DNA of 64,000 nucleotides. It comes from Chrysiogenes arsenatis DSM 11915. Lineage in GTDB: Bacteria; Chrysiogenota; Chrysiogenetes; Chrysiogenales; Chrysiogenaceae. Made by a program: the position numbers and the translations under genes. This document shows positions 7,527 to 64,000 of this stretch, piece by piece. The notes under the pieces are model-generated. The model saw nothing but the letters and a program-made list of their open reading frames with translations. It had not been told where the DNA came from and did not search any database. The stretch is taken from positions 40,311 through 104,310 of the forward strand of contig NZ_AWNK01000004.1 of the NCBI RefSeq assembly GCF_000469585.1. Reading direction: 5' to 3'. The number at the start of each line of letters is the position of its first letter. Within the stretch, counting starts at the first letter, position 1.

Positions 7527-7542
7527 GGTGTCCCTGCTTCGA

Positions 7543-10359: not shown

Positions 10360-10373
10360 AAGAACACCTCTTA

Positions 10374-18658: not shown

Positions 18659-18662
18659 TAAA

Positions 18663-18698: not shown

Positions 18699-18708
18699 TG
18701 TTGCCCCT

Positions 18709-21192
<2,484 letters not shown>

Positions 21193-24491: not shown

Positions 24492-24500
24492 CGTAGCCTC

Positions 24501-31095: not shown

Positions 31096-31122
31096 GGAAA
31101 GCTCCTTAAGAGGGCAATGACG

Positions 31123-33540: not shown

Positions 33541-33696
33541 TTCACGCTGAGTTTGCATAGAGACAGTCACAATTGTGTTTAAAATAACGATATGAGACGG
33601 AGAGAGTGCTGGCAGAAATTTTGGACAATAAAACAGGCAGCGCCATAATAAACACTGCCCGTAGATAACCTAAATCGACTTTTTGCACACACCTCA

Positions 33697-34551
33697 TTAT
33701 TCCCGCAGGGATATTTCTTTGTCCCACTCCCAGTAAAACGTGAGGTAAGGTTCGTTTGGGCGCCTCCACCCGAGTGAGATATGGCCAAGCATGGCATCGG
33801 GAAATCTTGAGAGGATCTGGATCACCGATGCGCGGCGAGAAATACTCAAGATCTCAAAGCATTGATCCTGCACGCACGGTAAGATATCCCTAATGGCTAC
33901 GTTTAAATCATACACTCGCAAATCCACCCCTTGGCTCTGTGGCGGAGTGTTGACGTACAGAATGTCCAGTTTTTTTTCGCCATCCACAGTTGCGACACCA
34001 ATCCGATCAAGTAGGCTACCGAAGATCGGTTCAGTAACAACCTCAGGAAGCAGTAAGGGAATCGTGGCTATGGTAGCACCGGGAACCATGTGGTAAGAAG
34101 TCACGCGCTCAAGTTTCCCACTTCGAGCCCGCCATTTGTAGCCACGACACCACAATGCCGATGGTTGCCAATAAAGTTGTTCTCCAACTTGCGTGGACAA
34201 ATGAACGGGAAATTCAAGATAGAGCTTGATGACCTCTGGCGTCGCTGACGACACGTTTTCCGGAGAGACTACCGCCGATTCAATTGCCAGATAACAAAAA
34301 TTTGCACGATCCCAATCGGCAAGAATTGATTCAGATACTATGTTCGGAACACCGCCAATCTCCTGAAAATGGGAAAACAATTCCATAGGGTCGAGATTCT
34401 GTTTATCAAACCCAAAAAGCAATCTACTGCCATCAAAGCCATTTGGTGTAATTTGCAGCGAACGTTCCCACCCTACCACTCTTGAACCCAACCAATGAGC
34501 GATTTGATAATAAACATCAAGAGTCAGAAGCTTATTGGAGTGGTTACTCAT
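33697..34551 (-). CDS. Hypothetical protein, last gene of the export operon (no recognisable domain)
   Basis: 284-aa ORF overlapping the SecA-like gene by 8 nt. No TM helix or signal peptide is obvious and no motifs are recognised. Confidence 0.5.
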   Translation of the reverse strand: MSNHSNKLLTLDVYYQIAHWLGSRVVGWERSLQITPNGFDGSRLLFGFDKQNLDPMELFSHFQEIGGVPNIVSESILADWDRANFCYLAIESAVVSPENVSSATPEVIKLYLEFPVHLSTQVGEQLYWQPSALWCRGYKWRARSGKLERVTSYHMVPGATIATIPLLLPEVVTEPIFGSLLDRIGVATVDGEKKLDILYVNTPPQSQGVDLRVYDLNVAIRDILPCVQDQCFEILSISRRASVIQILSRFPDAMLGHISLGWRRPNEPYLTFYWEWDKEISLRE

Positions 34552-43901: not shown

Positions 43902-46900
43902 TTAAAACTCAAATTCTTCCTCTGTGTAGAAGTCGAAAATGAAACTATCTTGAATACTTGAGCCAAAGCTCGAAAACTGGAAGTCTCCATAGAAGTTAAC
44001 CACCTTGCTGGAAGTATACGGCATTTGCAGGTTGAAACCTGGCTCTAAGCCTACTGGCGCTTGCTGCATAAATCCAAAGTCGAAGTTGATGCCACCAAAC
44101 ATTCCGTCAGAGATGCCAAGATCGCTCAAGTTCATAAAGGAACTCATGGTGGCTTTCTGTAAACGTGACAAGCTTGCATGATCAAGGAATGTTGTCGCAT
44201 TGTGCAAACGCAGAGCATCCATATTTTCTATCGATAATTCTTGGATTGTTTTACTTGCACTAGCCGAAGCGCCTCCCCCTTGAGATCCACTGAAGCGCAC
44301 TGACTCAAAAGCACTCAATTTGAATTCCGCTCTCACTGGACCATGAACAACGGCGTGATTACCCACAGAAATCACGTACACTCGCTGATCAATACCACGG
44401 ATACCAAATATATAGCTATCACCAGTAGCATCATCAACAACACTATACAGTTGCCCAGGACCGACAATGCCATGAATCTGCGCTGCATCTATCTTCAGTA
44501 AGTCAGCGCGGATAGCTTCAAGTTGAGGTATCAGGCTTGCTACTGGCTGATCAATAAAAAACGGTATCGTCTTGATAAACACCTGATTGGCAACAATATT
44601 GGCTGCTTGTGTCCCGAGCGAACTCTGGATACGATATTCCGAACTTTCAAGCCACACATCACCACCCGTCGCAACGTGAGCAATCAACAAAATACTATCG
44701 GTCGAGGTAAAGTAAATATCGCCTCGCTCTGATAATGTCTGTGCACTTGCTTTCATCTCTATGACCGGAGCCGTGTAACGAACTTCCCCCTGCCCCGTCA
44801 GCGACAGAGTGGCCTCTTGCACAATACTTTTTCCAGATGAAAGGACAACGGTACTATCGACGCCTGAGATATTCATAGCAAGAATCAGTGAACCATGTAC
44901 GGCATGGAGTTCGATAGTGCCATGACTACTCGTTCCATTCAGCATTGAATCCGTAATTTCTTCAACAAGAGCTTCATTGGTCATCCGCAGCACCGTTAGC
45001 TCACCGAACTGGTCATTATCACCAATGCGCAAATCTTCTTGGGCGGCAAGGAAGATACCACCATGACCAATATCCGCACTCAGTGAATCGACTTCAACCA
45101 CAAAAGGACGCCCTGATTCACCAAGTTGACTACCAGTAACCCGCAGATACTTTGCTAGGATATTCACGGTACTTGAAGGAGCACTGGTTATGACGCCACC
45201 AACCAGACTGACCGCAGTTGGAGTTGTTACATGAGAGATGGACATACTGTGAGTTGCTTCGATGCGAATATTGTTCTGAGTTTGCAATAGAGCTTTAGCT
45301 GTCATGGAGACTGATTGGGCACTAATGTCGAGCGTCGCATCTCCTGTAATATGAACCAGACTGTCGATAAACTCCACATTGCCGTTCCGCGCTAACAACG
45401 ACACATTACCACTGCTGGCAATGTCGCTCTGCACGATAATGGATCCATTTTCAACTTCTATTTGTAAGTGCTCGCCAGAGAAATTCAACGCACCATCAAG
45501 TATAAAGTTTCGCTGCTCACCGGAAACGCCTGCCTGCACCATTATGACAGTTACGGTGTCGGTTGCCAATTCAAGCTCAGACAAACGCAGATCACCACTA
45601 GTGGTAATGGTATTTAACCCCGCTATGGTGAATACCCCCTGCAGGGTAGTAGTCCCGCCACTGTGAGCACTTAGATCGCCACCAACCGTGAGGTTTCCTT
45701 CAATTGTCAAAGTTTCATCGGTTTTGATAGTCGTGTCACCGGTGATAGTGATTGCATCGCTGAGTATTACTGCTCCGGTTCCGGTGATAGCAAGGTCGCC
45801 GCCAATCTCTAGTGTGCCTTCGACGGTAGTTGCTCCGCCGACTGTCAGGGTAACATTGGCGCTGGTGAAAGTTCCTTCTATCAGCAGGGCATCGGTTGAT
45901 GTTAGTTCAGTACTTCCTTCAACGATAAAGATTCCGTCTAGGATGCTCTCGCCTGCACTGCTTGTGGTAAGGGCGCCACCAACAGTGAAGTTTCCTTCAA
46001 GTGTCAGGTCAGCATCGGTCTCGATAGTCGCGTCACCAATAATAGTGATTGTATCGTTGAGCATCACCGCTCCGGTTCCGGTGATAGCAAGGTCGCCGCC
46101 AATATCTAGTGTGCCTTCGACGGTAGTTGCTCCGCCGACTGTCAGGGTAATGTTGGCGCTGGTGAAAGTTCCTTCTATCAGCAGGGCACCGGTTGATGTT
46201 AGTTCAGTACTTCCTTCAACGATAAAGGTTCCATCTAGGATGCTCTTGCCAACACTGCTTGTGATGAGGGCGCCACCAACAGTGAAGTTTCCTTCAATCG
46301 TCAGGTCGGCATCGGTCTCGATAGTCGCGTCACCGCTAATGGTGATTGCATCGCTGAGCATCACCGCTCCAGTTCCGGTGATAGCAAGGTCGCCGCCAAT
46401 ATCGAGCGTACCTTCGACTGTAGTTGCTCCACCGACTGTCAGGGTGACGTTGGCACCGCTGAAGGTTCCGGTAATCGATAAGTCTGCTTTCGCATCGATA
46501 GTCGTGTCACCGCTAATGGTGATTGCATCGCTGAGTATTACTGCTCCGGTTCCAATGATAGCAAGGCTGCCTGCAACATCCAGCTCACCTTCGATAGTGG
46601 TTGTTCCGCCGATTGTCAGGGTGACATTGGCGCTGGTGAAAGTTCCTTCTATCAGCAGGGCACCGGTTGATGTTAGTTCAGTACTTCCGTCAACGATAAA
46701 GGTTCCATCTAGGATGCTCTTGCCAACACTGCTTGTGATGAGGGCGCCACCAACAGTGAAGTTTCCTTCAAGTGTCAGGTCGGCATCAGTCTCGATAGTC
46801 GCGTCACCGCTAATGGTGATTGCATCGCTGAGCATCACCGCTCCGGTTCCGGTGATAGCAAGGTCGCCGCCAATATCTAGTGTGCCTTCGACGGTAGTTG

Positions 46901-49900
46901 CTCCGCCGACTGTCAGGGTAACGTTGGCGCTGGTGAAAGTTCCTTCTATCAGCAGGGCACCGGTTGATGTTAGTTCAGTACTTCCGTCAACGATAAAGGT
47001 TCCGTCTAGGATGCTCTTGCCAACACTGCTTGTGATGAGGGCGCCACCAACAGTGAAGGTTCCGGTAATCGATAAGTCTGCTTTCGCATCAATGTTGATG
47101 TCACCGTCAATGGCTATTGCATTACTGAGTATCACCGCTCCGGTTCCAGTGATATCAAAGTTGCCAGCAACATCCAGCTCACCTTCAATAGTGGTTGCTC
47201 CACCAACTGTCAGGGTGACGTTGGCACCGCTGAAGGTTCCAGTAATCGATAAGTCTGCTTTCGCATCGATGTTGGTGTCACCGTCAATGGCGATTGCATT
47301 ACTGAGTATCACCGCTCCGGTTCCAGTGATGCCAAGGTTGCCAGCAACATCCAGCTCACCTTCGATAGTGGTTGTTCCGCCGACTGTCAGGGTGACCTTG
47401 GCACCGCTGAAGGTTCCGGTAATCGATAAGTCTACTTTCGCATCGATGTTGGTGTCTCCGTCAATGGCGATTGCATTACTGAGTATCACTGCTCCGGTTC
47501 CAGTGATATCAAAGTTGCCAGCAACATCCAGCTCACCTTCAATGGTAGTTGTTCCTCCGACAGTCATGGTGACGTTGGCACCGTTGAAATCTCCGTCAAT
47601 CGTCAGGGCTGCATCAGTATCGATAGTCGTGTCACCGGTGATAGTGATCGAATCGCTGAGCATTACCGCTCCAGTTCCGGTGATGCCAAGGTTGCCGCTA
47701 ATATCCAATGTGCCAGCGACTGCGGTTGTTCCACCGACTGCCAAGGTGACGTTGGCGCCAGTAAAGGTTCCGATAATCGCCAAGCCTGCTTTCGCATCGA
47801 TGGTCGTGTCACCGGTGATAGTGATCATATCGCTGAGCGTTACCGCTCCGGTTCCGGTGATGCCAAGGTTGCCGCTAATATCCAGTGTACCAGCGACTGC
47901 GGTTGTTCCACCGACTGTCAGGGTGACATTGGCACCGCTGAAGGTTCCGATAATCGCCAAGCCTGCTTTCGCATCGATAGTCGTGTCACCGCTAATGGTG
48001 ATTGCATCGCTGAGCGTTACCGCTCCGGTTCCGGTGATAGCAAGGTTGCCTGCAACATCCAGCTCACCTTCAATAGTGGTTGCTCCACCGACTGTCAGGG
48101 TGACGGCGGCGCCGGTAAAGTCTCCTTCTATCAGCAGGGCACCGGTTGATGTTAGTTCAGTACTTCCTTCAACGATAAAGGTTCCGTCTAGGATGCTCTT
48201 GCCAACACTGCTTGTGATGAGGGCGCCACCAACAGTGAAGTTTCCTTCAAGTGTCAGGTCGGCATCGGTCTCGATAGTCGCGTCACCGCTAATGGTGATT
48301 GTATCGCTGAGCATCGCCGCTCCGGTTCCGGTGATAGCAAGGTCGCCGCCAATATCGAGCGTACCTTCGACGGTAGTTGTTCCTCCGACTGTCATGGTGA
48401 TGTTGACACCAGTGAAATCTCCATCTATCGTCAAGTCTGCTTTCGCATCGATGTTGGTGTTGCCGTCAATGGTGATTGCATTGCTAAGTGCAACGTTTCC
48501 GGTTCCGGTGATGCCAAGGTCGCCGGTACTCACCAGCCTACCTTCGACGTTAGTTGCGCCTCCGACAGTCATGGTGACACCACCGCCGGTGTATCTCCCT
48601 TTAAGTGTTAAATCATTTGTGGCAGAAAGGTTGCTACTTCCTGTTGTGCTAAAAGTACCGCGCAAGATACTTGCACCATCGCTGTTCGCGACGAAGTCGC
48701 CAGCAACGGTTAACTCGCCTATGATTGTCAGGTCTGCTTTCGAATCGATGGTCGTGTCACTGCGCAGCTTGAAATCACCAATAAGAACCATATTGCCCTG
48801 ACTGTTGATTGTACTGGTGCCGCTTACCGTGAGTGACAGCGCACTTGCCTGATTGCTGGTGAGCGCTCCAAGGGTATCAATGTGCAACGTTCCGGCAACT
48901 GCATTTCTACCAAAGAGGTACGTGTCGCCATCTATAAAGAGCGTCGCATCACCGTTGAGCGTAGTGACGTTCAGGCTCGCAATGCGCACCTCGCTCTGAG
49001 TATTTGCGCCAAGGGAAATATCGCCATTGGTGGCGCGCATGGTGGTTTTGCCACCAAGTCGCAATACATCATCGGTATCATTGGCCAGTGCTATTGATTG
49101 GGCGGTGAATGAGTTATCGCCCGTCACGATAAGCTGTGTACTGGCGCCAGCGGTAATACTCTCTGGCGTAGTCACATTAAGGCGTCCCGCCGTATTGCTG
49201 CCTACAAACGTCACGGCATTATCAAGTTCCAATACCACTGCGCCAGCACTGTTGACCGTCAAGGTTCCGGCAGAGAAAAAGTCACCAACAGCATTGCCAA
49301 GACGAATTTCCCCGCCAGAGAATGCGGCATGACCTGTAATCGTAAGTTGTGCTTGCGTCAGGTTGGAAAGCACATTGACCGCTTGCGCACGAAGATCTCC
49401 ACCGACAGTGATATTCGATAGGGTTAAATTGTTGGCAGCCTTCAAATGGACATTTTTGGCTTGATGCACCGTCACGGCACCACCAAAGTTATGACTATTG
49501 TCAAATACAATATCCGATGCCGCATCAGCCGTGAGCTTTGTGATTCCCGTGACCGACAACTTGCCCGTCGCGCCATCATTAAGAGAACCCGATACCACCA
49601 GTTCTAGTGTTTTAGCAGTGCTTTCCCCCGCTAACACCATATCGCCATCGTGTGTTATGCGCACATTGCCATTGCTCACAAAGGTCAGAGTGCCAGTAGT
49701 GAAGGAATCGGTATCGATAGTAACGGCACTGCCTGAGAAACGGGAATTCTCTTCAACCGCAATCTGCGCCCCCTCTAGAGTACTCAGCTCATGAACCGCT
49801 GTCGCAACAAGATTGCCGGTGACGGTCAGATTTGCCAGTGTCAAGGTATTCACATCGCTGAGTGTTACATTCCGAGCGCCGAGCACGGTCACTGCGCCAC

Positions 49901-55900: not shown

Positions 55901-58900
55901 GAATTAACTGGTCGGCACGGATCATAGCCTGATCAACAGTGGCGCCTACAATATCTGCCGTAGTGGTTACGCTGACGAAGTCACGCACGCCATTATTACC
56001 ACCGCGAATCCAGATATTTTCGACCACCAAACGGTCATTACTGACAACCGCTACGTTGCCTGCATCAAGGAGGATATCCCCCAGAATCAGGGCACGGCCA
56101 CTTTGATTCAGTGTCAGATCGCCAGAGGCCAATTCTGCATCAATACGACCCGCTTGCGTGCGCAAACTCGTAGCCGTCCCCAACGACAAGTGCAGCTGCT
56201 CTACCGCAATGGCTGGGGTATTTTCATCGATATTTTGCACCCTACCCGGTGTGATCAAATGCACGTAACCACTACTAACAAGAGTGCCAATAGCAATTTG
56301 CGCCTGAGCCGCGTTCACGGCAACCGTGTCACCAACATTGAAGCCCTCACCCAGCACCGTCTGCACTTCCAGCGTCAGGCGATTCTGGCTCACATCACCA
56401 CTCAGTTGAGCGTCTACTACCCGCAAATTGCCGGTATTTGTCAGGGTGACCAGCATGTCCACCGCATTGACAAGCGAAAGATCAAGGTTGCCCACATGGC
56501 TGATATCCATAGTGCTCCCCGTGCCAGAAAGCTTCAGCGACTGAACATCGTTCAGCACCAGCGTTGCTGTACCACCAGCCGCAAGGTGGAGCGTTTCGCC
56601 CTGCAAGTAAGCCCGTGCCATCAAAGTATCACCAGTAAAGCTCGCTTGCTGTATCAGATCCCCTTGGGTACTGATAAGCGTAACGGTATTTCCCGCACCA
56701 ATCCCTTCGACAAAGCTACTGGCATCCAGTACGATATCACCCGTATTGGCCTGCAGGGTAATATGGTGGGCATATACCTCACCCAAAATATGCAGATGGT
56801 GCTGCGCCTCCACTACCACTTGGCCGTCAACCAGCGCGGCACTACCAATTTGGCCTGCGAGCGAAGCATCTTGCGCACTGTTCAGGCTAATGTTGCTCGC
56901 CAGCAGGGTGGAAGTATTCGCAAGCGCAAGCTCACCAGCGATTAAGGACAAACTCTCTGCCGTTAAAATCGATTGCGAAGCAAGTACGCCCGAACCTTCC
57001 ACGGCCGCTTGCCCCTGCACACTCAGCAATCCACCAGCTTCCACTGTCAGCGCCTGTGTCGCCGTTACTAAGCCGCGCAAATCGACAGCACCGGCACTCT
57101 CCAAACGGATATTCCCCGCCTGCAATGATTGCCCCGCAAAAGCCGCTTGTTCTTGCACCTGACTTTCAAACCCAGGCACCTGCTCTGCACGCCCCTCTAA
57201 ACCATACGTATTCTGTGTTTCCCACTGAGTTACCGTTTCATCTACAACGGTAGCGACTTGGGTTGTAATGGCGCCATACTGCGAAACAAGCTGGGTGACA
57301 TCGTTCGGCTCGTACACCACCTGATAATGTAATTTCATACGCTGATCGCGCAAATCTGTGGTATTCGAAGTCCAGTCATAGGTGTAATCGGTAAAGGTTT
57401 CAAGTGGGGCATTTTTCGTTTGCCAGTCATCAATATGATAGAAAATTGACAACGTCGTATCGAGGCCAGTACCTGGAACTAATGCAGTATCATGATGTTT
57501 CCAAGAGAAACCAATTTGTAGAGTTCCATAAAGGTCACCACTAACTAGGCGACTAAATATATCAAGCTTTTCTCTTAACGATACATGACCACTTGCAACG
57601 TGCGAAGCGTGGTCTTGAATAGAATTGCTAAAATTATCAATAGAATTAAAATAATGGGCTGTATAAATATGACGAGGACTCATACTTGTGTTCCATGAAT
57701 ATGTAACAAGTCTGTCGATTAAATTGGAGTACAGTGTACTTTGGGTAGCGTCAAGTGTTGCAATACTTGTATTAGGATCAAGTTCAGCATCAAGTAGTGT
57801 AGAAAAATTCTGTTTCAATAACTCCATCATGCTTCCAGCAGTTGGAGTTGTGTAGTTTTCCCCTACTATAACTATATAGATTGCGCTTGTTTCTGGTGTA
57901 TAGAGATCAGCTATGCGATAGCTCCCCGCATACTGATTACTACGCGGAGTAGTAACCACTACGTTCATATTGCCCGTATTATTAATGAGCGCCTCTACAA
58001 AACGGTTATCGGCGCGGATGAGCTGGGTTGCCGGTTCACTAGGAGTAAACCCTGCCGTTACAACATTTGAATTGATTCCATAGTCCACTGCCCACGTTGG
58101 CAGTAGACCGGAACTGAATCCAGCGCTACCCACGACGCTATATTCGCGACTACCACCACCCACATAGGTTACATCCCAATAGGCAGGGTCATTACCATCA
58201 ATCACCTCATTGGCGGCGCTAATGATATCAGGAAAAGGAATAACACCCGTCCACTGCGATGCTGCCTGAGTATATTTAACCTGCGCAACGTCTTTGAAGT
58301 TTCCAACGAATTCACCCAAAAGATCGCCACCAGCTACCGGTGAGCTAAACAGCGGTACATACCCCAGCGTGTCGGCGACTGCCATTTTCTGCGCGTCGCT
58401 TAAAGCGGCAAAAGTTGTTCCAGCGGTGGGCGCACTGAGGCCATAGTTCCCCCAGACAATATTCTCATTGGTGTAGTGCGTTCCGTGCACAAAGCTCGCT
58501 TGAGTGTGACCAACGGCATTGCGATAAGTGACAGTAACCCCAAGTTCAGCCGCCGATTTCCATGTGCCACTATTATTGCCATTCATTGTGGTGTCGTTTA
58601 CCAGATATTGTGGCCCACCTTGCGACACAACGCGCAAGATATCGGCCTCAGCTCCCTGCGGCAGGCTGATCAACATATCGCGCCAACCGGCAACATCGAC
58701 GGAAGTCACCTGTTGCGCATTCCCATGCCATGACGGAGTATGGGCAGTAGCCGTCGCGGTGCCGTTCGTAACCGTCACTTTCTGTGCATTGCTGTAACTG
58801 AACTGAAACAGTGGCTTGTACCCCAGATAGTTAAGCACAGCCTGACGTTGCGCCTCGTTTAACTGGTCAAAACGGGTGTTGGCACTTGGTGCCGTCGCCG

Positions 58901-61900
58901 TGCGGTTCGGCAGGAGTTCGGTAGCCGCATTGTTCCAGTTGACTACACTGTTCTGATAATCCTGCCCTTCGATAAAGAATTCTTTGAAGTTGGTGCCATT
59001 ATGGTAGCCGGTCTGCTCCAGCGCGACATTCATCATGACATATTCGTAGCCGACCGTCACACGCGACTGCGAGACTATTTCCATCCTGGTGGTTTCCGAC
59101 CAGACAATTTTGGGAATGGTTATCGTGCCAACAGCAACACTCTGCGTGCCGGTTACAATTGGCACAAAAGTTATTTGCGTGATCAAGGTTGGCACACGGA
59201 TCGTCCGCTCCTGGGTGCCAGCAATACTCGCTTGGAGTATCAAATCGCCTCCGGTCTGAATATTGAGGTCACGGGCGGCGGTGGCTCCGCCGATACCCAG
59301 CACATACACATTACCAGCCGCCTGCAGGCTCGCGGTGGTTTGTGCCGCTTGCAATGCAACATGACCAAGGCTGAGGTCGACACCAGCACGGATATCGATA
59401 TCTCCGCTTGAATCAAGCAGCCCATTCAATACCAGTTGCCCTGCAGTGTTGATTAACAGCCGGGCTACGTTTTCGCCACTTGGGAGATCAGTCACTTTCA
59501 CCTCGCCATTTATGGCGATCGCCTGACTGAGGAGGTGGAGCAATGCACCGGACTGCAAGCGAGCGGAACCGTCTATCAGCAATTCGGCATCAGCTTGGGC
59601 GCGAAGCGTGCTCCCCGTGCCTGTGGTTTCGACCAGTGCGGCCGCAAGTATATTCAGTTGCTGAGCGGCATGGAGCGCAATGGTGTTGGCCGCATGGAGT
59701 TGACCGGCATGGGCGGCTATGCCTTCGCCATCGACGATACCATCGCCGATATAAATGCTGCCAGCACTGGAGTGTAGATGTATGTCGCTGACGAGATGGA
59801 GATACTCTCCACCCTCATTGATTTCAGCACCAAGGCGGGTTTTTACAAAAATATCATCTACTGCGGTGAGTGTCAGCGTGCCGCCAGCGACCCGCAACGT
59901 ATGCCCCGCTTCAACCAATAAGCCAAGATCTGGGTGGCTCGAAACGCCTGTGCCGCCGTGGAGTTCTAGGCTCGTGGTTGCCCAAACTTCGCCCCCAGCC
60001 ATCCAGAGCAAACCACTGGTTGTGATGGTGACATTATTACCCACTATGCGGCTAAAAGGGTTGAATTTCAAAAGGTCATCGGTGCTATCCAGGCCCGTTT
60101 GAAGCTGAATGTTGCCACTCGCCTGAATCAGCGCCAAGCTCGCTACGAGTTCGTTTGTAGTGGTGTTTAATACTTGACCACCCATTTGCAATTGTCCGTC
60201 AAGATTGAATGTCACGTGGGCGATGTTTCCAGCCGACCAGTCGGCTTCGGTTGGGTTTTCCGCGTCAAAGCGGGCACCAGCATAGGCTTGACCGACCCAG
60301 AAGGCATCGTGTGCCGTCACGGTGAGTTCACTGCCATCACCACGGAGGTAGAGCGCTGCATTTCCTGCTAAGTGCAACGTTGCCCCGGCATCAATGTGCA
60401 AATCATTAGCAACTTGTATGGTCACACTGCTTGGATCTAGCTGGCCAACGTGTGGCGTAGTGTTGCCGATATTGATATCGTTTCCAGCCTTCAGCGTTAA
60501 TGATTGCAAGAGGGCAGCGGCTTCAGTCACGTCGGTCTGGTGCGTACTGCGGACGCCAAGCATGGCATTGGCCAGCGACAGGGTATCGCCTGCTTCTAGC
60601 ATTATGGTTCCACCGCGCACATTCCCAGAGAGGGTCAGATTTTCACTGGCAAAGAGTGTTGAGATCACAGAACTGGTGGCGTTGCGGACGACGAGTGCCC
60701 CCTGGAAGTCAATAGTGCGCCCACTTAAACTGACGGCATCGTCGGCTATCAGGTAGCCGTCCGTCGTTACGGTAATGTCGCCTTGGCTCTGAAGCGAGAG
60801 GTGGGTAACGCCAAAGTCACTTCCATCAAGCGTTGAGTTAATGATCAGGTTTTGAGTTGAACCAATTTGCAGTCCGCCAGCCGCCACAATTTGACCAGCA
60901 CCCAACTCCATTTGCGCCGTGGTAGCAACTATAATCTTAACACTTCCGGCAGACTGGACGGTTGCGGGGTCACCGCTGTTGGCTTTCGGCTGTATAACGG
61001 TGCGCCCTTCAGACTCTAACCGGATGGTACTGTGAGCTTCGCTTGTTTTGAGTAGCGCCGCTCCACCAATGGTAATGGTATCCGTAGCGATCAGCGAAAT
61101 ATCGCTATTTGCTCGCACAGTGCCAAGCACGGTGAGAGTTCCGTCAACTTCAAAATGGACGGCTCCGCTCGCTCCGGCATGTTGGGTGTAGAGCGCATCG
61201 ATCTGTTCTCCGTCGGCATTGTAAATAGGTTGTAACTCGCCACCGCTCGCGGCAAAGCCCCAGATTTGCGCATCGGCATCGGCAATCATTTTAAGGATGC
61301 CATCGGGATTTTTCACGACGGCAACGGCGGTTGCTGGCATTTTAATGGCGAGGTTATCATCGCCCGCTCCGTGATTGCGGCCACTGCCACCCTGCAAGGT
61401 CATGGCACCTCCGGCACGCAGGGTACCGCCAACTTCGATTGTGCCGCCACCGGTTGCAGCGGCCTTGCCTCCGAGATAGAGTTGCCCCAGAGCTACAATA
61501 GTCATGGTGGCTTCGGTATTGATCCAGTGAATGCTTTCGGTTGGTACACCACCAGCAATAGTACGGTTTACGCTGCCACCAGCCAGCAGGTTGCCCATCA
61601 CTTCAATATGTCCAGCCGTGGTGAGCGTCAGTGTGCCCGTCTGCGTGTTTGGTTGCGGCGTAGCGCTGATACCCCCGCCAACGGTGATCCCTCCGGCAGC
61701 CGTTACTTGTATGCCAACGCCATCATAAATGCTGTTTTGTGGTATCCCGGCACGTATTTCGGCATTGCCAGACGCCGCGAGTCCGGAATCGATACGGACT
61801 TGTTGATGAAGCGATTCAAGGTAAAGACGATTATTGGCAGCGTTAAAGACAAAACCAGTGCTACCAATATTTCCGCCTGCCACGATTTCGCCGTTTGTGT

Positions 61901-64000
61901 GCACCGTTTGCGAGCCGATCAGTCTGATTTCGCTCCCGCTGCCGGTCGTGGTGATTTGACTGGTGCGAGCGATCAGAATACTCACGCCATCGCTGTTTGC
62001 TCCGTTAAGGTCTATCAGCTCAATACCGCTTTTGCGCACGCCACCGTAAATTTCGACGTTGCCGCTAATGGCGGTCTGCCCTTCCCAATAGACCCAGTGG
62101 TCGGATTGTAAAGAGAGGTCGGCATTAAGCCCGCGAGTTTCAATATTGCCCAGCATAAAGAGGGCGCCTGCTCCGCCAATGTGGATATCCGCATTGTTCC
62201 CAAGCGTCGTGAGTGTGCCCGTGAGCAAGAAACCAAAGTTTGGTTGGGCACTGCCCGTCGCTTGGTAGAGTGGGTGGGGAGTGCCGAGCGTGCTAAAATA
62301 CGCATCAACATAATTTACACTCGAAGCGATACCGGCACGTGGCGTCCCCATATCAAGCGTAAGTTGGCCGCTGGCACTCACGGTGCCAGCAATCCACATT
62401 TCCGCTTGCGAGTAGAGGTAGACACTGGCCTGCGCCCCTGTTTGGTAGGCAATTGATTCATTGAAGGCCACGCCAGCATTGATGGCCGAACCACTGCCGA
62501 TGATCATGGCCTGGCTTGATTCAAGGTAAATGCTGGAATTTTGTGCGAGTGCCGAGATTTCGGATTGAGCGTTCAGGATAAGTTCACCACCCGAAACCAA
62601 ACGGATAGTGCCGCCATTCGGGTTGGTGGCTACGATGCTATCAACAATAACGCTCTGGTTAGTTTGGATAATGACGTCGTCACCACGTGCGGTGAGTCCG
62701 CTCGCGTTTGGATCATTAAAGCCGATATTGACGTCCTCGGCCACTTGCAACACGAGGCTATCAATGCGGTATTTATTGGCAATGAGCATACCCGATTCTA
62801 ACGCCAGTGTGCCGCCATCGGTTGCATCATCGGCAATAATTTGCTGCCAAATATTGGTATTGGAAAAATCTTGTTTACTCAAATCAAGAGTCGCTGCGGC
62901 TCCAACATACTCGTACAGGCCGTATTCGGACTTGGAGTATTGCACTTGCACCAGTGCACCCGTATTGAGGCCCAGCGCACTGTTTTGGCTGCTTTCGGTG
63001 CGTCGATCGGTACCAGTACTATAATCAGCAGTAATGCGTTGCCAAAGAGTCGTATTGTCAAAGGGATTTTCTAGCGTGGTTAGATCGACCTGCTCATTCG
63101 AGCCGAGATAGCGATACAATTCATACGCCACGCCAATGACATCACCGGCTCCGGCGCTAGCCAAGGCGCGTTGTTCGGCGACACTCAGTTCGTCAAAGCG
63201 ATGTGGTGCGGTAATGACGAGCACGTCACCAAGTTGACCAACTTGTCCACCGCCCCACGCTTCAGCGATAACGCTATTGGCTTTGATGTTGAGGAAATCG
63301 TTCGAGGTGGCTGCGCCGAGCTGACGGGTATCAATATGTGGGTTCAGGAACCCAGCAAAGCCCGCATTGAGGCGATATTGGGCACGCGAACTTGATATGC
63401 CAGACTCTACTATTAAACTGGCAACACCAGCATTCACCTGATTGGCATTTGTTTGTACACCATTGGCACCATCAATTATGGAACCGCTAAGAGTAATTAA
63501 CGTTACATTGCCGTTCTCTGAAGCTACCGAGGCGGCGGCATTCTCCCACGCTGTGGGGCGTACCAACACCATATCACCTTCAGTTTGGGTAATGCGGACA
63601 TTGCCTTCGGCACGCACCGCTAATCCACCGTCGCCCTGTGTATTGCTGACGAGATGGATATGGCTCACTTCACCGTTAATGGCATCAAGGTGTACTACGT
63701 TACCCCGAATGCTCATGTACTCAGTTTCACCCTGCCCTTGGCTGACTATCCCCTCTGCAGCGCGGATAGTGACATCGCCGGTAGTTGATTCAACTTTAGT
63801 AGCTTGGAAGAGACTGCTCAGGTTATCGCTCGATATAACTTGAACGAAAATATCATCGCCTGCGGTGATACTGGCAAAGCCTCTATTCCCTTCCATCATC
63901 AAAGTGACACTGCCACCGGCCGTAATGCTCGGCGCTATCCCATAATACGCAGCGCCGTCAGCAAAAGTAACATTGCCCTGGCTGTTTATCGCCATGAACA
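43902..64000 (-). CDS. Giant repeat-rich beta-helical surface protein (putative adhesin/S-layer-like filament, probable cargo of the adjacent export genes). More than 6,697 aa, with the 5' end outside the window.
   Basis: A single uninterrupted minus-strand frame of 20.1 kb ends with TAA at 43902-43904. Composition is T/G/S/A/V/N/I/L-rich with hundreds of degenerate ~20-25-aa beta-strand repeats (..TLTVGGATTVEGTLDIGGDLAITGTG..). Beta-helix repeats run to the window edge, so the N-terminus is further upstream. No RTX GGxGxD nonapeptides are seen. Confidence 0.85.
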   Translation of the reverse strand, partial: FMAINSQGNVTFADGAAYYGIAPSITAGGSVTLMMEGNRGFASITAGDDIFVQVISSDNLSSLFQATKVESTTGDVTIRAAEGIVSQGQGETEYMSIRGNVVHLDAINGEVSHIHLVSNTQGDGGLAVRAEGNVRITQTEGDMVLVRPTAWENAAASVASENGNVTLITLSGSIIDGANGVQTNANQVNAGVASLIVESGISSSRAQYRLNAGFAGFLNPHIDTRQLGAATSNDFLNIKANSVIAEAWGGGQVGQLGDVLVITAPHRFDELSVAEQRALASAGAGDVIGVAYELYRYLGSNEQVDLTTLENPFDNTTLWQRITADYSTGTDRRTESSQNSALGLNTGALVQVQYSKSEYGLYEYVGAAATLDLSKQDFSNTNIWQQIIADDATDGGTLALESGMLIANKYRIDSLVLQVAEDVNIGFNDPNASGLTARGDDVIIQTNQSVIVDSIVATNPNGGTIRLVSGGELILNAQSEISALAQNSSIYLESSQAMIIGSGSAINAGVAFNESIAYQTGAQASVYLYSQAEMWIAGTVSASGQLTLDMGTPRAGIASSVNYVDAYFSTLGTPHPLYQATGSAQPNFGFLLTGTLTTLGNNADIHIGGAGALFMLGNIETRGLNADLSLQSDHWVYWEGQTAISGNVEIYGGVRKSGIELIDLNGANSDGVSILIARTSQITTTGSGSEIRLIGSQTVHTNGEIVAGGNIGSTGFVFNAANNRLYLESLHQQVRIDSGLAASGNAEIRAGIPQNSIYDGVGIQVTAAGGITVGGGISATPQPNTQTGTLTLTTAGHIEVMGNLLAGGSVNRTIAGGVPTESIHWINTEATMTIVALGQLYLGGKAAATGGGTIEVGGTLRAGGAMTLQGGSGRNHGAGDDNLAIKMPATAVAVVKNPDGILKMIADADAQIWGFAASGGELQPIYNADGEQIDALYTQHAGASGAVHFEVDGTLTVLGTVRANSDISLIATDTITIGGAALLKTSEAHSTIRLESEGRTVIQPKANSGDPATVQSAGSVKIIVATTAQMELGAGQIVAAGGLQIGSTQNLIINSTLDGSDFGVTHLSLQSQGDITVTTDGYLIADDAVSLSGRTIDFQGALVVRNATSSVISTLFASENLTLSGNVRGGTIMLEAGDTLSLANAMLGVRSTHQTDVTEAAALLQSLTLKAGNDINIGNTTPHVGQLDPSSVTIQVANDLHIDAGATLHLAGNAALYLRGDGSELTVTAHDAFWVGQAYAGARFDAENPTEADWSAGNIAHVTFNLDGQLQMGGQVLNTTTNELVASLALIQASGNIQLQTGLDSTDDLLKFNPFSRIVGNNVTITTSGLLWMAGGEVWATTSLELHGGTGVSSHPDLGLLVEAGHTLRVAGGTLTLTAVDDIFVKTRLGAEINEGGEYLHLVSDIHLHSSAGSIYIGDGIVDGEGIAAHAGQLHAANTIALHAAQQLNILAAALVETTGTGSTLRAQADAELLIDGSARLQSGALLHLLSQAIAINGEVKVTDLPSGENVARLLINTAGQLVLNGLLDSSGDIDIRAGVDLSLGHVALQAAQTTASLQAAGNVYVLGIGGATAARDLNIQTGGDLILQASIAGTQERTIRVPTLITQITFVPIVTGTQSVAVGTITIPKIVWSETTRMEIVSQSRVTVGYEYVMMNVALEQTGYHNGTNFKEFFIEGQDYQNSVVNWNNAATELLPNRTATAPSANTRFDQLNEAQRQAVLNYLGYKPLFQFSYSNAQKVTVTNGTATATAHTPSWHGNAQQVTSVDVAGWRDMLISLPQGAEADILRVVSQGGPQYLVNDTTMNGNNSGTWKSAAELGVTVTYRNAVGHTQASFVHGTHYTNENIVWGNYGLSAPTAGTTFAALSDAQKMAVADTLGYVPLFSSPVAGGDLLGEFVGNFKDVAQVKYTQAASQWTGVIPFPDIISAANEVIDGNDPAYWDVTYVGGGSREYSVVGSAGFSSGLLPTWAVDYGINSNVVTAGFTPSEPATQLIRADNRFVEALINNTGNMNVVVTTPRSNQYAGSYRIADLYTPETSAIYIVIVGENYTTPTAGSMMELLKQNFSTLLDAELDPNTSIATLDATQSTLYSNLIDRLVTYSWNTSMSPRHIYTAHYFNSIDNFSNSIQDHASHVASGHVSLREKLDIFSRLVSGDLYGTLQIGFSWKHHDTALVPGTGLDTTLSIFYHIDDWQTKNAPLETFTDYTYDWTSNTTDLRDQRMKLHYQVVYEPNDVTQLVSQYGAITTQVATVVDETVTQWETQNTYGLEGRAEQVPGFESQVQEQAAFAGQSLQAGNIRLESAGAVDLRGLVTATQALTVEAGGLLSVQGQAAVEGSGVLASQSILTAESLSLIAGELALANTSTLLASNISLNSAQDASLAGQIGSAALVDGQVVVEAQHHLHILGEVYAHHITLQANTGDIVLDASSFVEGIGAGNTVTLISTQGDLIQQASFTGDTLMARAYLQGETLHLAAGGTATLVLNDVQSLKLSGTGSTMDISHVGNLDLSLVNAVDMLVTLTNTGNLRVVDAQLSGDVSQNRLTLEVQTVLGEGFNVGDTVAVNAAQAQIAIGTLVSSGYVHLITPGRVQNIDENTPAIAVEQLHLSLGTATSLRTQAGRIDAELASGDLTLNQSGRALILGDILLDAGNVAVVSNDRLVVENIWIRGGNNGVRDFVSVTTTADIVGATVDQAMIRADQLILDAGTGVSGLEVAVNHLQASSDSGDLIVRDRSLAGQTSPGLLLGTVALQGSGLLHISAQDDVRLDKEAQVSGHTIRLQSEEGNVLVEKPDGWSSSADDSVTGYTNLALVATQGSVNLYRQFNQAAGTLEYRASAFAFGNAGSQVTSFDEDMSADKVIIHAVHSGTGVDDSGQTLTLNAAIRANALVELVSDANIMFEGDLLRLDNPAGKIDKLVMRASGLSDIAVVNLEGENPGTPTEGSPTESSPSGFIRVIAPTLMVHVLDMRAKESVSIATTNDLYLNGVIAGLTSLEPLNSLKIEAAHLNLAAGVINASSLIELHADRISMNTGGLLKSETLRVRATDDVTLFTNVKSLDVQTDSGNLTVRQSGVLKVEQMITGNGAIDLRTKDDLTLVDVRSMTNSVTNTISVATLGDIKVGLVSAPAGAVTLDTIGTIQRMEAAPSGAVHIVGDTVSILGATGALDTLNIATSSGEFTRNMVSQSALSLAQLETDVQGDYVVSIPKPILNSQVGLGGDGYVPLTATATGNIWVTDLPLGDGQSLDLASSGGDIVLGSNVGTGNSDISLTGNTVLSSGTITAKNLTVAVTQDTTLSTQTANLNLNTQATAGVALTVQQQGDLAGGTVAMQGGSLNLQVSGNAQLTNLTNSSAGGAELKVDFTLADSTNTSVTLNGVNSANANTHIRSNAALNISGEVSTGATGALNLETTKTVALNLTGNNANQLTVTQLKSEGLTVDNSGDTVLKLDGDINVGAGDFVVNSDTTYLGGTVQGGSLNITGSGATTNLSGRHLFAGEYTIHDSLRIVGSSVSVTSGGDITLGGESAGYYLAANSGGVETTFNLNLSDGGRVIVWSEVGSGSGTAPATGYLAGMNITGASDVTFEEAVTIAGDLVINATGDVIFKKGVTLLDGGSLTIIGGTVGFGSGMVTLSGSTAGNIAITADIVTADADLNIALNGGTIKFNAKVQAATLAITGATVANFNDNVSVSEDLTLIVDAVHLADGKTFTGSDGSELIIGAYSAERNVNIGVSAGDALNISNSMLANSHGFSQFIFGHLEKAGGEWQGNETASGVVTVGASLDAAAMLHTDTTVYGTTLTLKAVATSASNLSLITTHGLTLGNTVVDGNLTILATGDVAQASGTTLATDSLQLDVSGNVTLQNQQALTLLESQVGGDLDISAAGDITQSGSLTVTGWSEIEARSLDGITDYDITLTHVGNNFTGSVALRGKNASLVDQSVSLANVTLSGSLTLDATAGAIIQATGTAISVAGLADLTATTDITLGIDDSDGFTSGLLQLKATDVTLCDTGSAITLTGQSVVTGGVALSSTVGGILANTAAWLEVGGTTLLTVTAGSNVLLENENNRLAGSVTFANAHNVTVHNMLNTQLSASTISGDFTVVTAGNITQSGALDVSGDMALHATGSVVLENLANEFSGNVSLVAASANIVNNRALELGELTITGDMDIYAHGVISQAGVMVISGESRITAASGDERFDITLTDAQNRFVGAVALIGANVTVATNEQLELGVSSIRGDLRVAGQGIVQSGAITVGGVAHLSAGAGVITLDDTSNQFASTVHLHNSGDYAVTLTQDGALELGTSSVGSGSLTIAATGAITQTGALVQALNAGLVTFTTQAGEIALTNSTNNFTGVVLILNDGEHAISIADIDDVKLGAITSNSDLKVHAGGHVSQVDTIEVGGLTDVTAASITLGIENNFSTETMRFSSEGEVIVNVAAGADAIMTGNNTAGSLVLTTVDGAIGTRNETIITVLGHASFTAGSGADITIDEPVTARFGSLQFTTTGAVEISHTGDLLLLQASSTQQLTLHATGNITDGDTGVLHVINATLLRVADEKAIHLDNNHSLGGAIHITNAYDVALKNTQSIHLGAVNVTNDLILETDGSIETEANVTIDVAGVVALLVGDGSDIVIGTESNVTFGALQFSTTGNVVITQSAPLTLAGASFAGGNLSLTAQGTVTNRTDATLTVTGSTTLQATETADIILDNAHNFGGAVTVLGARNVTLSDVNTLTLANLTVTGNLVATAVHELSTLEGAQIAVEENSRFSGSAVTIDTDSFTTGTLTFVSNGNVRITHDGDMVLAGESTAKTLELVVSGSLNDGATGKLSVTGITKLTADAASDIVFDNSHNFGGAVTVHQAKNVHLKAANNLTLSNITVGGDLRAQAVNVLSNLTQAQLTITGHAAFSGGEIRLGNAVGDFFSAGTLTVNSAGAVVLELDNAVTFVGSNTAGRLNVTTPESITAGASTQLIVTGDNSFTAQSIALANDTDDVLRLGGKTTMRATNGDISLGANTQSEVRIASLNVTTLNGDATLFIDGDTYLFGRNAVAGTLHIDTLGALTSNQASALSLTVSGTSTINSQGNMVLIGDFKLRSDTTIDSKADLTIIGELTVAGDFVANSDGASILRGTFSTTGSSNLSATNDLTLKGRYTGGGVTMTVGGATNVEGRLVSTGDLGITGTGNVALSNAITIDGNTNIDAKADLTIDGDFTGVNITMTVGGTTTVEGTLDIGGDLAITGTGAAMLSDTITISGDATIETDADLTLEGNFTVGGALITSSVGKSILDGTFIVEGSTELTSTGALLIEGDFTGAAVTLTVGGATTIEGELDVAGNLAITGTGAVTLSDAITISGDTTIDAKAGLAIIGTFSGANVTLTVGGTTAVAGTLDISGNLGITGTGAVTLSDMITITGDTTIDAKAGLAIIGTFTGANVTLAVGGTTAVAGTLDISGNLGITGTGAVMLSDSITITGDTTIDTDAALTIDGDFNGANVTMTVGGTTTIEGELDVAGNFDITGTGAVILSNAIAIDGDTNIDAKVDLSITGTFSGAKVTLTVGGTTTIEGELDVAGNLGITGTGAVILSNAIAIDGDTNIDAKADLSITGTFSGANVTLTVGGATTIEGELDVAGNFDITGTGAVILSNAIAIDGDINIDAKADLSITGTFTVGGALITSSVGKSILDGTFIVDGSTELTSTGALLIEGTFTSANVTLTVGGATTVEGTLDIGGDLAITGTGAVMLSDAITISGDATIETDADLTLEGNFTVGGALITSSVGKSILDGTFIVDGSTELTSTGALLIEGTFTSANVTLTIGGTTTIEGELDVAGSLAIIGTGAVILSDAITISGDTTIDAKADLSITGTFSGANVTLTVGGATTVEGTLDIGGDLAITGTGAVMLSDAITISGDATIETDADLTIEGNFTVGGALITSSVGKSILDGTFIVEGSTELTSTGALLIEGTFTSANITLTVGGATTVEGTLDIGGDLAITGTGAVMLNDTITIIGDATIETDADLTLEGNFTVGGALTTSSAGESILDGIFIVEGSTELTSTDALLIEGTFTSANVTLTVGGATTVEGTLEIGGDLAITGTGAVILSDAITITGDTTIKTDETLTIEGNLTVGGDLSAHSGGTTTLQGVFTIAGLNTITTSGDLRLSELELATDTVTVIMVQAGVSGEQRNFILDGALNFSGEHLQIEVENGSIIVQSDIASSGNVSLLARNGNVEFIDSLVHITGDATLDISAQSVSMTAKALLQTQNNIRIEATHSMSISHVTTPTAVSLVGGVITSAPSSTVNILAKYLRVTGSQLGESGRPFVVEVDSLSADIGHGGIFLAAQEDLRIGDNDQFGELTVLRMTNEALVEEITDSMLNGTSSHGTIELHAVHGSLILAMNISGVDSTVVLSSGKSIVQEATLSLTGQGEVRYTAPVIEMKASAQTLSERGDIYFTSTDSILLIAHVATGGDVWLESSEYRIQSSLGTQAANIVANQVFIKTIPFFIDQPVASLIPQLEAIRADLLKIDAAQIHGIVGPGQLYSVVDDATGDSYIFGIRGIDQRVYVISVGNHAVVHGPVRAEFKLSAFESVRFSGSQGGGASASASKTIQELSIENMDALRLHNATTFLDHASLSRLQKATMSSFMNLSDLGISDGMFGGINFDFGFMQQAPVGLEPGFNLQMPYTSSKVVNFYGDFQFSSFGSSIQDSFIFDFYTEEEFEF
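45650..48850. repeat. About 3.2 kb of near-identical tandem DNA repeats (units ~300 bp and ~180 bp) inside the giant gene
   Basis: Example: 45781-45950 versus 46081-46250 versus 46852-47020 are almost base-for-base identical. They encode alternating ~99-aa and ~60-aa modules (..ETDADLTLEGNFTVGGALITSSVGKSILDGTFIVEGSTELTSTGALLIEGTFTSANVTLTVGGATTVEGTLDIGGDLAITGTGAVMLSDAITISGDATI.. and ..DAKADLSITGTFSGANVTLTVGGTTTIEGELDVAGNLGITGTGAVILSNAIAIDGDTNI..). Confidence 0.8.

Follow-up and report, generated by a model that had tools for sequence, protein, structure and literature searches.

How proteins of 10,000 to 37,000 residues are moved across two bacterial membranes is an open question. The closest described case is that of Chlorobium chlorochromatii, the epibiont of 'Chlorochromatium aggregatum'. 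Its giant proteins Cag_663 (36,806 amino acids (aa)) and Cag_665 (20,647 aa) carry an N-terminal 24-aa LEPRxLL domain and a long predicted C-terminal parallel beta-helix; sapC and tolC flank their genes, a horizontally acquired secA is co-expressed with them, and export to the partner cell is described (10.64898/2026.03.19.712371). We analyzed a 64,000-nt stretch of Chrysiogenes arsenatis DSM 11915 (contig NZ_AWNK01000004.1; hereafter the window), the last third of which holds the 3′ part of a giant gene that is followed by seven genes of an export operon. The explanation that we regard as probable is that the 6,698 residues visible in the window are the C-terminal part of an acidic, cysteine-poor extracellular LEPR-XLL protein, and that this protein is the cargo of the seven downstream genes, which would export it by a TolC-linked route with a SecA-like motor and without an ATP-binding cassette (ABC) transporter.

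The locus resembles that of the Chlorobium giants in the size of the protein, in the LEPRxLL element (seen here in nine of nine relatives with a visible start), in the adjacent sapC and tolC genes, in the link with secA and in the absence of a classical secretion signal. In Chlorobium, by contrast, the adaptor and secA genes are located elsewhere in the genome, the protease-adaptor fusion described below is not mentioned, and export C-terminus first by a sap-like type I secretion system (T1SS) was proposed. The likeness is one of described features and not of compared sequences, and Chrysiogenes is free-living whereas Chlorobium is a consortium epibiont. Searches of the open-access literature and bioRxiv found no description of an export gene set consisting of a SecA-like motor, a protease-adaptor fusion and a TolC-like channel, and beyond the 2026 preprint 'LEPR-XLL' was mentioned there only in passing, by two papers.

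Giants of Omnitrophota and Actinobacteriota independently connect large size with a truncated SecA: they carry the SecA DEAD and preprotein-binding domains without scaffold or wing, and a role of these domains in self-export was suggested (10.1101/2023.11.21.568195). In those proteins the SecA-like domains are part of a polypeptide with many transmembrane (TM) segments, whereas in Chrysiogenes a gene of its own in the operon encodes the SecA-like protein (652 aa), no TM-like segment was seen in the 6,698-aa giant fragment, and the operon includes adaptors and a TolC-like channel. Giant RTX adhesins (LapA of Pseudomonas fluorescens, MpIBP of Marinomonas primoryensis, SiiE and BapA) also have long acidic, cysteine-poor repeats and adaptor/TolC-type neighbours, and a one-step tripartite duct is the likely route for both. 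Unlike the Chrysiogenes fragment and operon, they have GGxGxD nonapeptides and an HlyB-type ABC transporter, and their repeats are mostly Ig-like, whereas the Chrysiogenes giant would be made of solenoid rungs of about 20 residues (DUF5649). DUF5649 has been placed among the stalk domains of fibrillar adhesin-like proteins (PMC8286594). Short beta-strand rungs would be shared as well with exoproteins of two-partner secretion (TPS), such as FhaB, CdiA, EtpA, HMW1 and HxuA; in contrast to these, no Fil_haemagg domain and no TpsB are present in the window, and the relatives start with LEPR-XLL and not with a Sec signal and a TPS domain. Pathways of peptide natural products, with their PqqD-like elements, HExxH proteases of the daptide and YydH type and peptidase-containing ABC exporters, have in common with this locus the combination of PqqD-like and HExxH domains, a short N-terminal motif, and the logic by which a leader-bearing substrate is recognised, cleaved and exported. 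Here, however, the cargo has thousands of residues rather than tens, and the protease carries a fused adaptor and is accompanied by a SecA-like ATPase and a TolC-like channel.

The giant frame reads from position 63998 to a TAA stop at 43902-43904 on the minus strand, i.e. 6,698 sense codons and the stop. The chance of so many codons without a stop is (61/64)^6698, or about e^-321. There is no upstream stop before the edge of the window, so that the ATG at 63995 is merely the first in-frame ATG and the gene runs past base 64000. This agrees with the original prediction, made from the sequence alone, of a single huge frame that continues beyond the window. The fragment is composed mainly of G (11.8%), T (11.7%), A (10.6%), L (10.1%), S (8.4%), V (8.2%), I (7.1%), D (6.2%) and N (5.7%), contains one Cys and is strongly acidic (675 D+E versus 245 K+R). 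The absence of GGxGxD from the last 600 or so residues, also predicted, was borne out and extends to all 6,698 residues, in which the motif does not occur once (0.7 expected from composition); nor does it occur in the collinear Spiribacter stretches of 7,315 and 1,636 aa discussed below. The description of the giant as free of RTX repeats holds for the part inside the window, with the limit that GGxGxD blocks are present elsewhere in some distant relatives of the N-proximal module. The giant protein of Pontibrevibacter has 21 such motifs within its last 5,950 residues.

The seven genes behind the giant gene are on the same strand and are separated by 26, 68, 4, 12, 3, 2 and -8 nt; a terminator-like hairpin is present at the end. 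This arrangement supports the proposal that the giant gene heads an export operon. Since terminator-like sites in the region are not more numerous than in shuffled sequences, the argument for the hairpin is its position. The GGAGGA Shine-Dalgarno sequence of sapC, the first of the seven genes, is 26 nt past the giant gene's stop. It is followed by the genes for a TolC-like outer-membrane factor, which has a signal-peptide-like N-terminal segment, and for two periplasmic adaptors. The long adaptor consists of a cytoplasmic N-domain of about 358 aa, one TM segment and then the periplasmic adaptor itself; its N-domain has no Pfam match, and the N-domains of relatives give faint matches to GAF. 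An HlyB-type ABC exporter was found neither in the operon nor elsewhere in the window. From this gene content we infer a tripartite secretion system in which a SecA-like motor and a protease-adaptor fusion replace the ABC transporter.

The protease-adaptor fusion, whose sequence is 100% identical to that of a recorded Chrysiogenes arsenatis protein, belongs to an M50-like family of at least 1,355 members. Its best NCBIfam match is the model of the daptide HExxH intramembrane protease (E 6.8e-45, under the model cut-off), and it falls well below the cut-offs of both the daptide and the LiaK models. Residues H208, E209, H212, N302, N304 and D310 are invariant in 82 aligned M50-like homologues and make up the HExxH...NxxPxxxxD signature of site-2 proteases. 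An AlphaFold model built on the homologue alignment has a predicted local distance difference test (pLDDT) score of 87.3; it contains a small N-terminal alpha/beta domain, a helical membrane core and a periplasmic lipoyl/hairpin/barrel module. The last of these, in the C-terminal part, is similar to the adaptors MacA, MexA and AcrA (E 9e-12). In the SecA-like protein the two nucleotide-binding domains and the preprotein cross-linking domain are kept, together with the GEGKT and DEAD motifs. It aligns to residues 33-558 only of the 841 residues of Bacillus subtilis SecA, and so it has no wing domain, two-helix finger or C-terminal region. It is far under every NCBIfam cut-off for SecA and SecA2, and no dedicated model for either protein was found in NCBIfam release 20.

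The cluster was found right after a very large open reading frame (ORF) in 16 other loci, comprising ten distinct genome or metagenome loci and six alphaproteobacterial plasmids. These loci were identified as the neighbourhoods of M50-like homologues and come from Gammaproteobacteria, Betaproteobacteria, Alphaproteobacteria and Desulfobacterota; the plasmid versions are more distant (about 30% identity). The upstream ORF is 10,763 aa in Spiribacter sp. C176 (where it is a called gene), 13,222 aa in Desulfobacteraceae Eth-SRB1, 13,361 aa in Hydrogenophaga and 12,389 aa in a JGI metagenome contig. The contigs of Thiomicrospira, Oceanospirillum and Burkholderiaceae, and one contig each from an ENA and a Logan metagenome, end within the upstream ORF. 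On plasmids it is 10,603 aa in Pontibrevibacter, 10,518 aa in Mesorhizobium ciceri, 12,737 aa in Pseudosulfitobacter, 8,847 aa in Methylosinus and 4,033 aa in Thalassospira; on one plasmid it is unannotated. Overall, the ORF is complete at 8,847-13,361 aa in six loci and at 4,033 aa in one. The Prokaryotic Genome Annotation Pipeline names the genes of Pontibrevibacter and Thalassospira 'LEPR-XLL domain-containing protein'. The plasmid counterparts of the SecA-like protein encoded in the window, 37-39% identical to it, carry the annotations 'DEAD/DEAH box helicase', 'translocase' or 'prepilin peptidase'. The order of the cluster genes is rearranged among loci, and the large ORF is still adjacent on the same strand. 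The placing of a very large repetitive protein directly upstream of the PqqD/M50-adaptor fusion, an association established in this analysis and not a curated one, thus applies to Chrysiogenes as well (>6,698 aa). No ABC exporter was found in the cluster at any of the 16 loci. That the giant belongs with the atypical export genes downstream is the best-supported point of the original prediction, as no examined locus has the cluster without a very large ORF before it.

The gene next to the giant varies among the loci. SapC is present also in L002, L004, L006, L008, L010 and L013. A DUF3467 protein of about 100 aa is encoded directly after the giant in plasmid loci L014, L017, L019, L020 and L021, in the place that SapC has in the closer clusters. 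In the Thalassospira marina locus (L020; plasmid NZ_CP024200.1, 193606-212571) the 4,033-aa LEPR-XLL protein is accompanied by DUF3467, an adaptor, the M50 fusion, a second adaptor and TolC. A protein with an Lcl_C domain is encoded between the giant gene and sapC in Hydrogenophaga (L006, L007) and likewise in Burkholderiaceae L012. Just past the Hydrogenophaga cluster, on the opposite strand, is a ShlB/POTRA_2 (TpsB-like) gene; the locus positions recorded for these Hydrogenophaga features are 5958-7298 and 17955-19562. Three loci have a choline-kinase/APH-like kinase gene between the adaptor genes (L003, 12922-13839; L004, 6639-7625; L010, 7046-8035), which the Chrysiogenes operon does not have. 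The 284-aa product of the last Chrysiogenes gene is unrelated to these kinases; it has no match in Pfam or NCBIfam and no similarity to genes at that position in relatives.

Collinearity with Spiribacter allowed us to estimate how much of the giant is outside the window. In Spiribacter salilacus, an open frame of 7,315 codons aligns collinearly over its residues 3334-7314 with residues 2-3743 of the fragment (35-57% identity), and the last 1,636 residues of the giant ORF do so with residues 3762-6698. As residue 2 aligns at Spiribacter residue 3334, at least 3,333 further residues would be expected upstream of the window. Three metagenomic homologues of the Spiribacter upstream part start about 3,100 residues further up, which together with the collinearity would place the full Chrysiogenes protein near 13,000 aa; judged from its relatives, the full-length protein probably exceeds 10,000 aa. 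The Spiribacter locus itself (NZ_WJPP01000006.1, 17681-77342; L001, L002) has the called 10,763-aa gene and, upstream on the same strand, a stop-free frame of more than 7,315 codons. Its total is more than 18,000 codons, in one gene or in two tandem genes; the stretch 49,972-55,396 between them is unread.

An exhaustive HMMER search of 1.84 billion representative proteins with residues 1-1200 as the query yielded 205 relatives, all of them partial proteins, none longer than 5,152 aa and none with true termini. Neither the C-terminal 499 aa nor the first 1,200 aa found a match in a word-indexed protein search. The 57%-identical Spiribacter protein was missed too, and the null result is therefore read as a limit of the method with low-complexity queries or giant proteins and not as absence. 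The first 1,667 aa had no match on plasmids by tblastn.

Relatives with a visible N-terminus begin, in nine cases out of nine, with a basic stretch followed by xEPR[VIL]LL[SN][AGS], i.e. with a leader of the LEPRxLLSAD type (NCBIfam LEPR-XLL, NF012209). Six of these adjoin the cluster (all six such proteins with a visible start): the 2,076-aa protein of L010, which matches NF012209 at E 1.8e-8, and the giants of Pontibrevibacter, M. ciceri, Pseudosulfitobacter, Methylosinus and Thalassospira. The other three are metagenomic homologues of the Spiribacter upstream part (three of three). By analogy we infer that the Chrysiogenes giant likewise begins with a LEPR-XLL leader. It would then join the class of LEPR-XLL giants, to which the two Chlorobium proteins belong, as a new member.

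At the other end, the Chrysiogenes giant finishes in an acidic/aromatic tail, ...SFIFDFYTEEEFEF-COOH (also given as ...FIFDFYTEEEFEF). A tail of this type, [FY][DE]x[FWY]x[DE][DE]-hydrophobic-x-hydrophobic with F or L as the last residue, is common to ten of ten substrates adjoining the closer clusters, and no internal 20-aa window of these ten proteins is as extreme (Fisher p 2.5e-21). The 2,076-aa protein of L010 does not have it. A strict pairing of the tail with SapC was considered and dropped, because tail-bearing L003, L005 and L012 show no sapC gene in the stretch seen. The Pontibrevibacter giant ends differently, in DDADWLIED, a hydrophobic stretch and a basic cluster, like the tripartite motif of a sorting signal or anchor.

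The repeat structure of the fragment was analyzed by several means. DUF5649 (PF18886), a 68-residue repeat model with a gathering cut-off of 25, was the sole Pfam family found, in 19 stretches: 15 of these together score 370.7 bits (E 2.8e-113) and the four others 70.2 bits (E 1.9e-19). NCBIfam gave nothing meaningful for the fragment. Tandem Repeats Finder (TRF) detected periods of 177, 297 and 474 nt with 81-89% matches over 45677-48578, and self-comparison showed that the repeat copies in residues 5001-6150 are 72-87% identical. Such identity at the DNA level indicates that the array expanded recently. Arrays of this kind probably explain why giant genes of relatives are found at the ends of draft contigs (L003, L004, L010, L012 and L013). 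An ORF of 1,037 codons on the plus strand (45688-48801) was rejected as a gene; it is wholly antisense to the tandem-repeat array and is probably an antisense by-product of the repeats.

In residues 5001-6150 the autocorrelation of hydrophobic and of G/N residues peaks at lags 6, 14, 20 and 59 (0.29-0.52, against a shuffled maximum of 0.07), and in residues 2251-3200 a lag-20 periodicity stands out. The repeat units of 59, 99 and 158 aa correspond to three, five and eight rungs of about 20 residues, with strands every 6-8 residues. The motif h-x-h-x-[GNDST][GNDS], where h is hydrophobic, is 1.8-2.5 times commoner than in shuffled sequences in residues 1-1600, 3201-5000 and 5001-6150 (in residues 1-1600, 40 occurrences of h-x-h-x-G/N versus 22 in shuffles), and it is not enriched in residues 1601-2250. 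Such repeats had been predicted throughout the protein; they are a feature of three of its regions and not of the aromatic-rich one. AlphaFold without an alignment gave a poor model of residues 5500-6698 overall (mean pLDDT 41.7), in which regular three-strand rungs were nevertheless drawn over about 325 residues (approximately 5929-6254; pLDDT 50-78), and the C-terminal region, residues 6151-6698, scored below 35. When this model was compared with the Protein Data Bank (PDB) by Foldseek, the weak and non-significant matches were all to beta-helix proteins (EtpA, MpAFP, HxuA, HMW1 and RsaA). The giant is thus likely to consist mostly of beta-solenoid rungs of about 20 residues and to form a beta-helix fibre. 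This agrees with the original prediction of a solenoid or beta-helix-type repeat protein, for which repeat and structure prediction on segments had been proposed as a check: the DUF5649 stretches, the lag-20 periodicity and the AlphaFold rungs all point the same way and make the fold likely, not proven. The product would be a surface or extracellular fibre; the original prediction also named an adhesin or an S-layer-like protein.

The aromatic-rich island (residues 1601-2250) that interrupts the repeats has no Pfam match, and a sequence search of the PDB with it was empty, as was a PDB search with the C-terminal 600 aa of the giant. Self-BLAST revealed an internal duplication in the island (residues 1675-1731 and 1836-1884) with the motif F..L..AQ...V...LGY.PLF. 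A conserved block, VTGYQ.VA.GTI.VP...TEQVG...GYYNP followed by LGY.PLF, recurs in many relatives including P0129, P0141 and P0145, and the LGY motif is present in many copies in some (P0140, P0145, P0149 and P0169). The island could be a functional head of the fibre, binding or enzymatic.

We propose the following mechanism. The N-terminal leader, i.e. the basic stretch and LEPRxLLSAD, would dock on the cytoplasmic PqqD-like domain of the M50/adaptor fusion, much as leader peptides of ribosomally made natural products dock on PqqD-like recognition domains. The clamp formed by the cross-linking domain of the SecA-like ATPase would grip the unfolded chain and feed it N-terminus first, possibly during translation, into an inner-membrane assembly of the site-2-protease-like core and the TM-anchored long adaptor, where the leader would be removed by the conserved HExxH...D site. 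The fused adaptor and the two free adaptors would bridge to the TolC-like channel, and the chain would fold outside into the beta-helix fibre; the acidic/aromatic tail and SapC may serve in recognition, release or retention. Overall this would be like a one-step tripartite type I system in which the ABC transporter has been exchanged for a SecA-like motor and a protease-adaptor fusion. More tentatively, and with somewhat less than even confidence, we suggest that the operon and its counterparts in at least four phyla represent a distinct, undescribed class of Gram-negative secretion system for giant proteins. Its hallmarks would be a leader read by a PqqD-like domain and clipped in the membrane, N-to-C threading by a SecA-like ATPase, and exit through adaptors and a TolC-like channel without a transporter of the ABC, resistance-nodulation-division or major facilitator type.

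Known secretion classes account for the data less well. The C-terminal parts of some ABC-exported proteins are acidic and then hydrophobic, and the tail of the giant resembles them. The giant might thus be an ordinary T1SS substrate with an uncleaved C-terminal signal, which an unlinked ABC exporter would move C-terminus first through the adaptors and TolC-like channel of the operon, while the SecA-like and M50-like proteins would be accessory, for unfolding, quality control or processing. The conservation of the tail in ten of ten closer substrates fits this, and of the ABC transporter, adaptor and TolC that make up a T1SS the last two are encoded in the operon. SapC was first described in the S-layer T1SS operon of Campylobacter fetus (as cited in 10.64898/2026.03.19.712371), and a C-terminus-first, sap-like T1SS route is what the 2026 preprint proposes for the Chlorobium giants (10.64898/2026.03.19.712371). 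Nevertheless, the HlyB-type ABC gene is absent from the operon and from all 16 related loci and the GGxGxD motif from the fragment, in line with the prediction that the giant is not a classical RTX/T1SS substrate. In addition, the alphaproteobacterial substrates do not have the tail and yet retain the M50 and SecA-like genes and the N-terminal leader, and with a C-terminal signal more than 10,000 residues would have to be completed and held unfolded in the cytoplasm before export. We consider this route unlikely. The window gives no support for two-partner secretion or type Va autotransport: the scanned ORFs had no Pfam match to TpsB (POTRA and ShlB) or Fil_haemagg, the LEPR-XLL leader takes the place of a TPS domain in relatives whose start is visible, and the last 1,698 residues contain DUF5649 and no Autotransporter or other Pfam domain. 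The C-terminal 450 aa were not drawn as a barrel by AlphaFold, in a part of the model that is of low confidence. Neither of the sets named in the original prediction as pointing to another route, TpsB or the ABC-HlyD set of a T1SS, is present in the window.

Export could also proceed in two steps, the SecA-like ATPase and SecYEG delivering the chain to the periplasm, with the LEPR-XLL leader as an unusual signal cut by the M50 protease, and the adaptors and TolC-like channel then acting as in MacAB-TolC. The SecA-like protein is clearly derived from SecA, its motor and preprotein clamp are intact, and intramembrane M50 proteases do cut membrane-embedded segments; the missing wing domain, two-helix finger and C-terminal region are, however, those that engage SecY and SecB, and LEPR-XLL leaders are devoid of the hydrophobic core typical of Sec signals. 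Moreover, fusion of the M50 protease to an adaptor makes the inner-membrane entry point part of the TolC-linked machine itself, and we find a Sec-dependent first step improbable. That the cluster exports or matures some other cargo, for instance a small leader-bearing peptide, with the giant leaving by another route or staying unsecreted and its adjacency having no function, appears highly improbable, with the limit that no systematic search for small ORFs was made. A PqqD-like domain and an HExxH intramembrane protease are indeed best known from peptide natural-product pathways, but all loci examined, from Chrysiogenota, three proteobacterial classes and Desulfobacterota, have a very large ORF next to the cluster on the same strand, and the genes of the Chrysiogenes operon are only 2-68 nt apart. 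The modification enzymes that are typical of clusters for peptide natural products are also absent.

Several observations weigh against export of the giant by the ABC-free, SecA-driven route, or against parts of that explanation. The clearest misfit is Thalassospira L020, where tblastn found no SecA-like gene within 20 kb; the motor may thus be dispensable, e.g. for a shorter cargo, or be encoded elsewhere. The N-terminus of the Chrysiogenes giant is outside the window, and its leader is deduced from relatives. The acidic tail is absent from the alphaproteobacterial giants, which have DUF3467 instead of SapC, and where it is conserved a C-terminal tail suits a C-terminus-first, T1SS-like direction of transport equally well. 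The beta-helix assignment rests on periodicity and a model of moderate confidence, and the best Foldseek match to the PDB (E 0.088) was not significant. Finally, an ABC-2 type ATPase/permease pair does exist, 42 kb from the stop of the giant gene. This pair, the only ABC system in the window (ATPase of 318 aa and permease of 262 aa; 364-2105, plus strand), is not of the HlyB type, and we rejected it as the exporter because of its wrong architecture, opposite strand and distance. The coordinates of the giant gene, its regions and the operon are collected in Table 1.

Table 1. Features of the giant gene and of the export operon in the 64,000-nt window (residue numbers are those of the 6,698-aa fragment).
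Feature	Position	Strand	Evidence or remark
Giant gene, 3′ part, 20.1 kb	43902-64000	-	stop-free translation up to the window edge; 5′ end beyond the window
Residues 1-1600, non-tandem, solenoid-like conserved module	59199-63998	-	46-57% identity to Spiribacter L001
Residues 1601-2250, aromatic-rich non-repeat island	57249-59198	-	aromatics 10-12% versus 2-5% elsewhere
Residues 2251-5000, divergent solenoid repeats including the main DUF5649 array from about residue 3850	48999-57248	-	Pfam PF18886; self-similarity map
Residues 5001-6150, near-identical tandem repeats of 59, 99 and 158 aa	45549-48998	-	TRF; self-comparison
Residues 6151-6698, non-repeat C-terminal region with acidic/aromatic tail	43905-45548	-	last 20 aa at 43905-43964
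SapC-family protein, 248 aa	43129-43875	-	Pfam PF07277, E 3.3e-69
TolC-like outer-membrane factor, 540 aa	41438-43060	-	Pfam OEP, E 6.3e-27; TIGR01844, E 7.9e-12, under that model's cut-off
Short periplasmic adaptor (membrane fusion protein), 294 aa	40549-41433	-	TIGR01730, 95.4 bits, at cut-off; Pfam HlyD_3, HlyD_D23
Long adaptor, 626 aa	38656-40536	-	HlyD_D23 and HlyD_3 at residues 385-594; TM-like segment at residues 359-382
PqqD-like / site-2-protease-like M50 (HEMGH) / periplasmic-adaptor fusion, 715 aa	36505-38652	-	Pfam M50, E 1.8e-5; PqqD, E 0.003
Truncated SecA-like ATPase, 652 aa	34544-36502	-	Pfam SecA_DEAD, E 4.5e-71; SecA_PP_bind; P-loop_SecA
Last operon gene, 284-aa protein without family	33697-34551	-	start overlaps the SecA-like stop by 8 nt
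Terminator-like hairpin	33633-33662	-	12-bp stem with 6 G-C pairs, then TTTATTGT; 35 nt past the last stop

The remainder of the window contains housekeeping and signalling genes. Between the operon and the gene for polynucleotide phosphorylase, the minus strand (29375-32528) encodes a UmuC-like Y-family polymerase (29375-30661), a UmuD-like S24 peptidase (30658-31095) and an NfeD/SPFH (Band 7) pair (31123-31548 and 31545-32528). Genes for cyclic di-GMP signalling, i.e. several GGDEF/EAL proteins and one EAL-HDOD protein, are dense in the region beside the operon, at 5397-12278, 17420-18658 and 21210-24863, and the same stretches contain chemotaxis-type signalling genes (CheA-like, CheC/CheX, methyl-accepting chemotaxis proteins and Hpt proteins). 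Large adhesins are often under cyclic di-GMP control.

The Chrysiogenes locus and the 16 syntenic ones point to a specific machine for giant proteins, in which a TolC-linked duct, a SecA-derived ATPase and an intramembrane protease-adaptor fusion would act on leader-bearing substrates. This idea would join observations that have stood apart: the uncharacterised LEPR-XLL domain of NCBI, the sapC/tolC genes and co-expressed secA of Chlorobium, and the truncated SecA domains of Omnitrophota. It would also cover the widespread misannotations 'PqqD family', 'M50', 'DEAD-box helicase' and 'prepilin peptidase' on rhizobial and roseobacter plasmids. As Chrysiogenes arsenatis, Spiribacter, Mesorhizobium and Thalassospira are cultured, genetics and proteomics of the system are feasible. 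If it does prove to be a distinct secretion class, it would also supply the export route that is still lacking for the giants of Chlorobium chlorochromatii, the largest known bacterial proteins.

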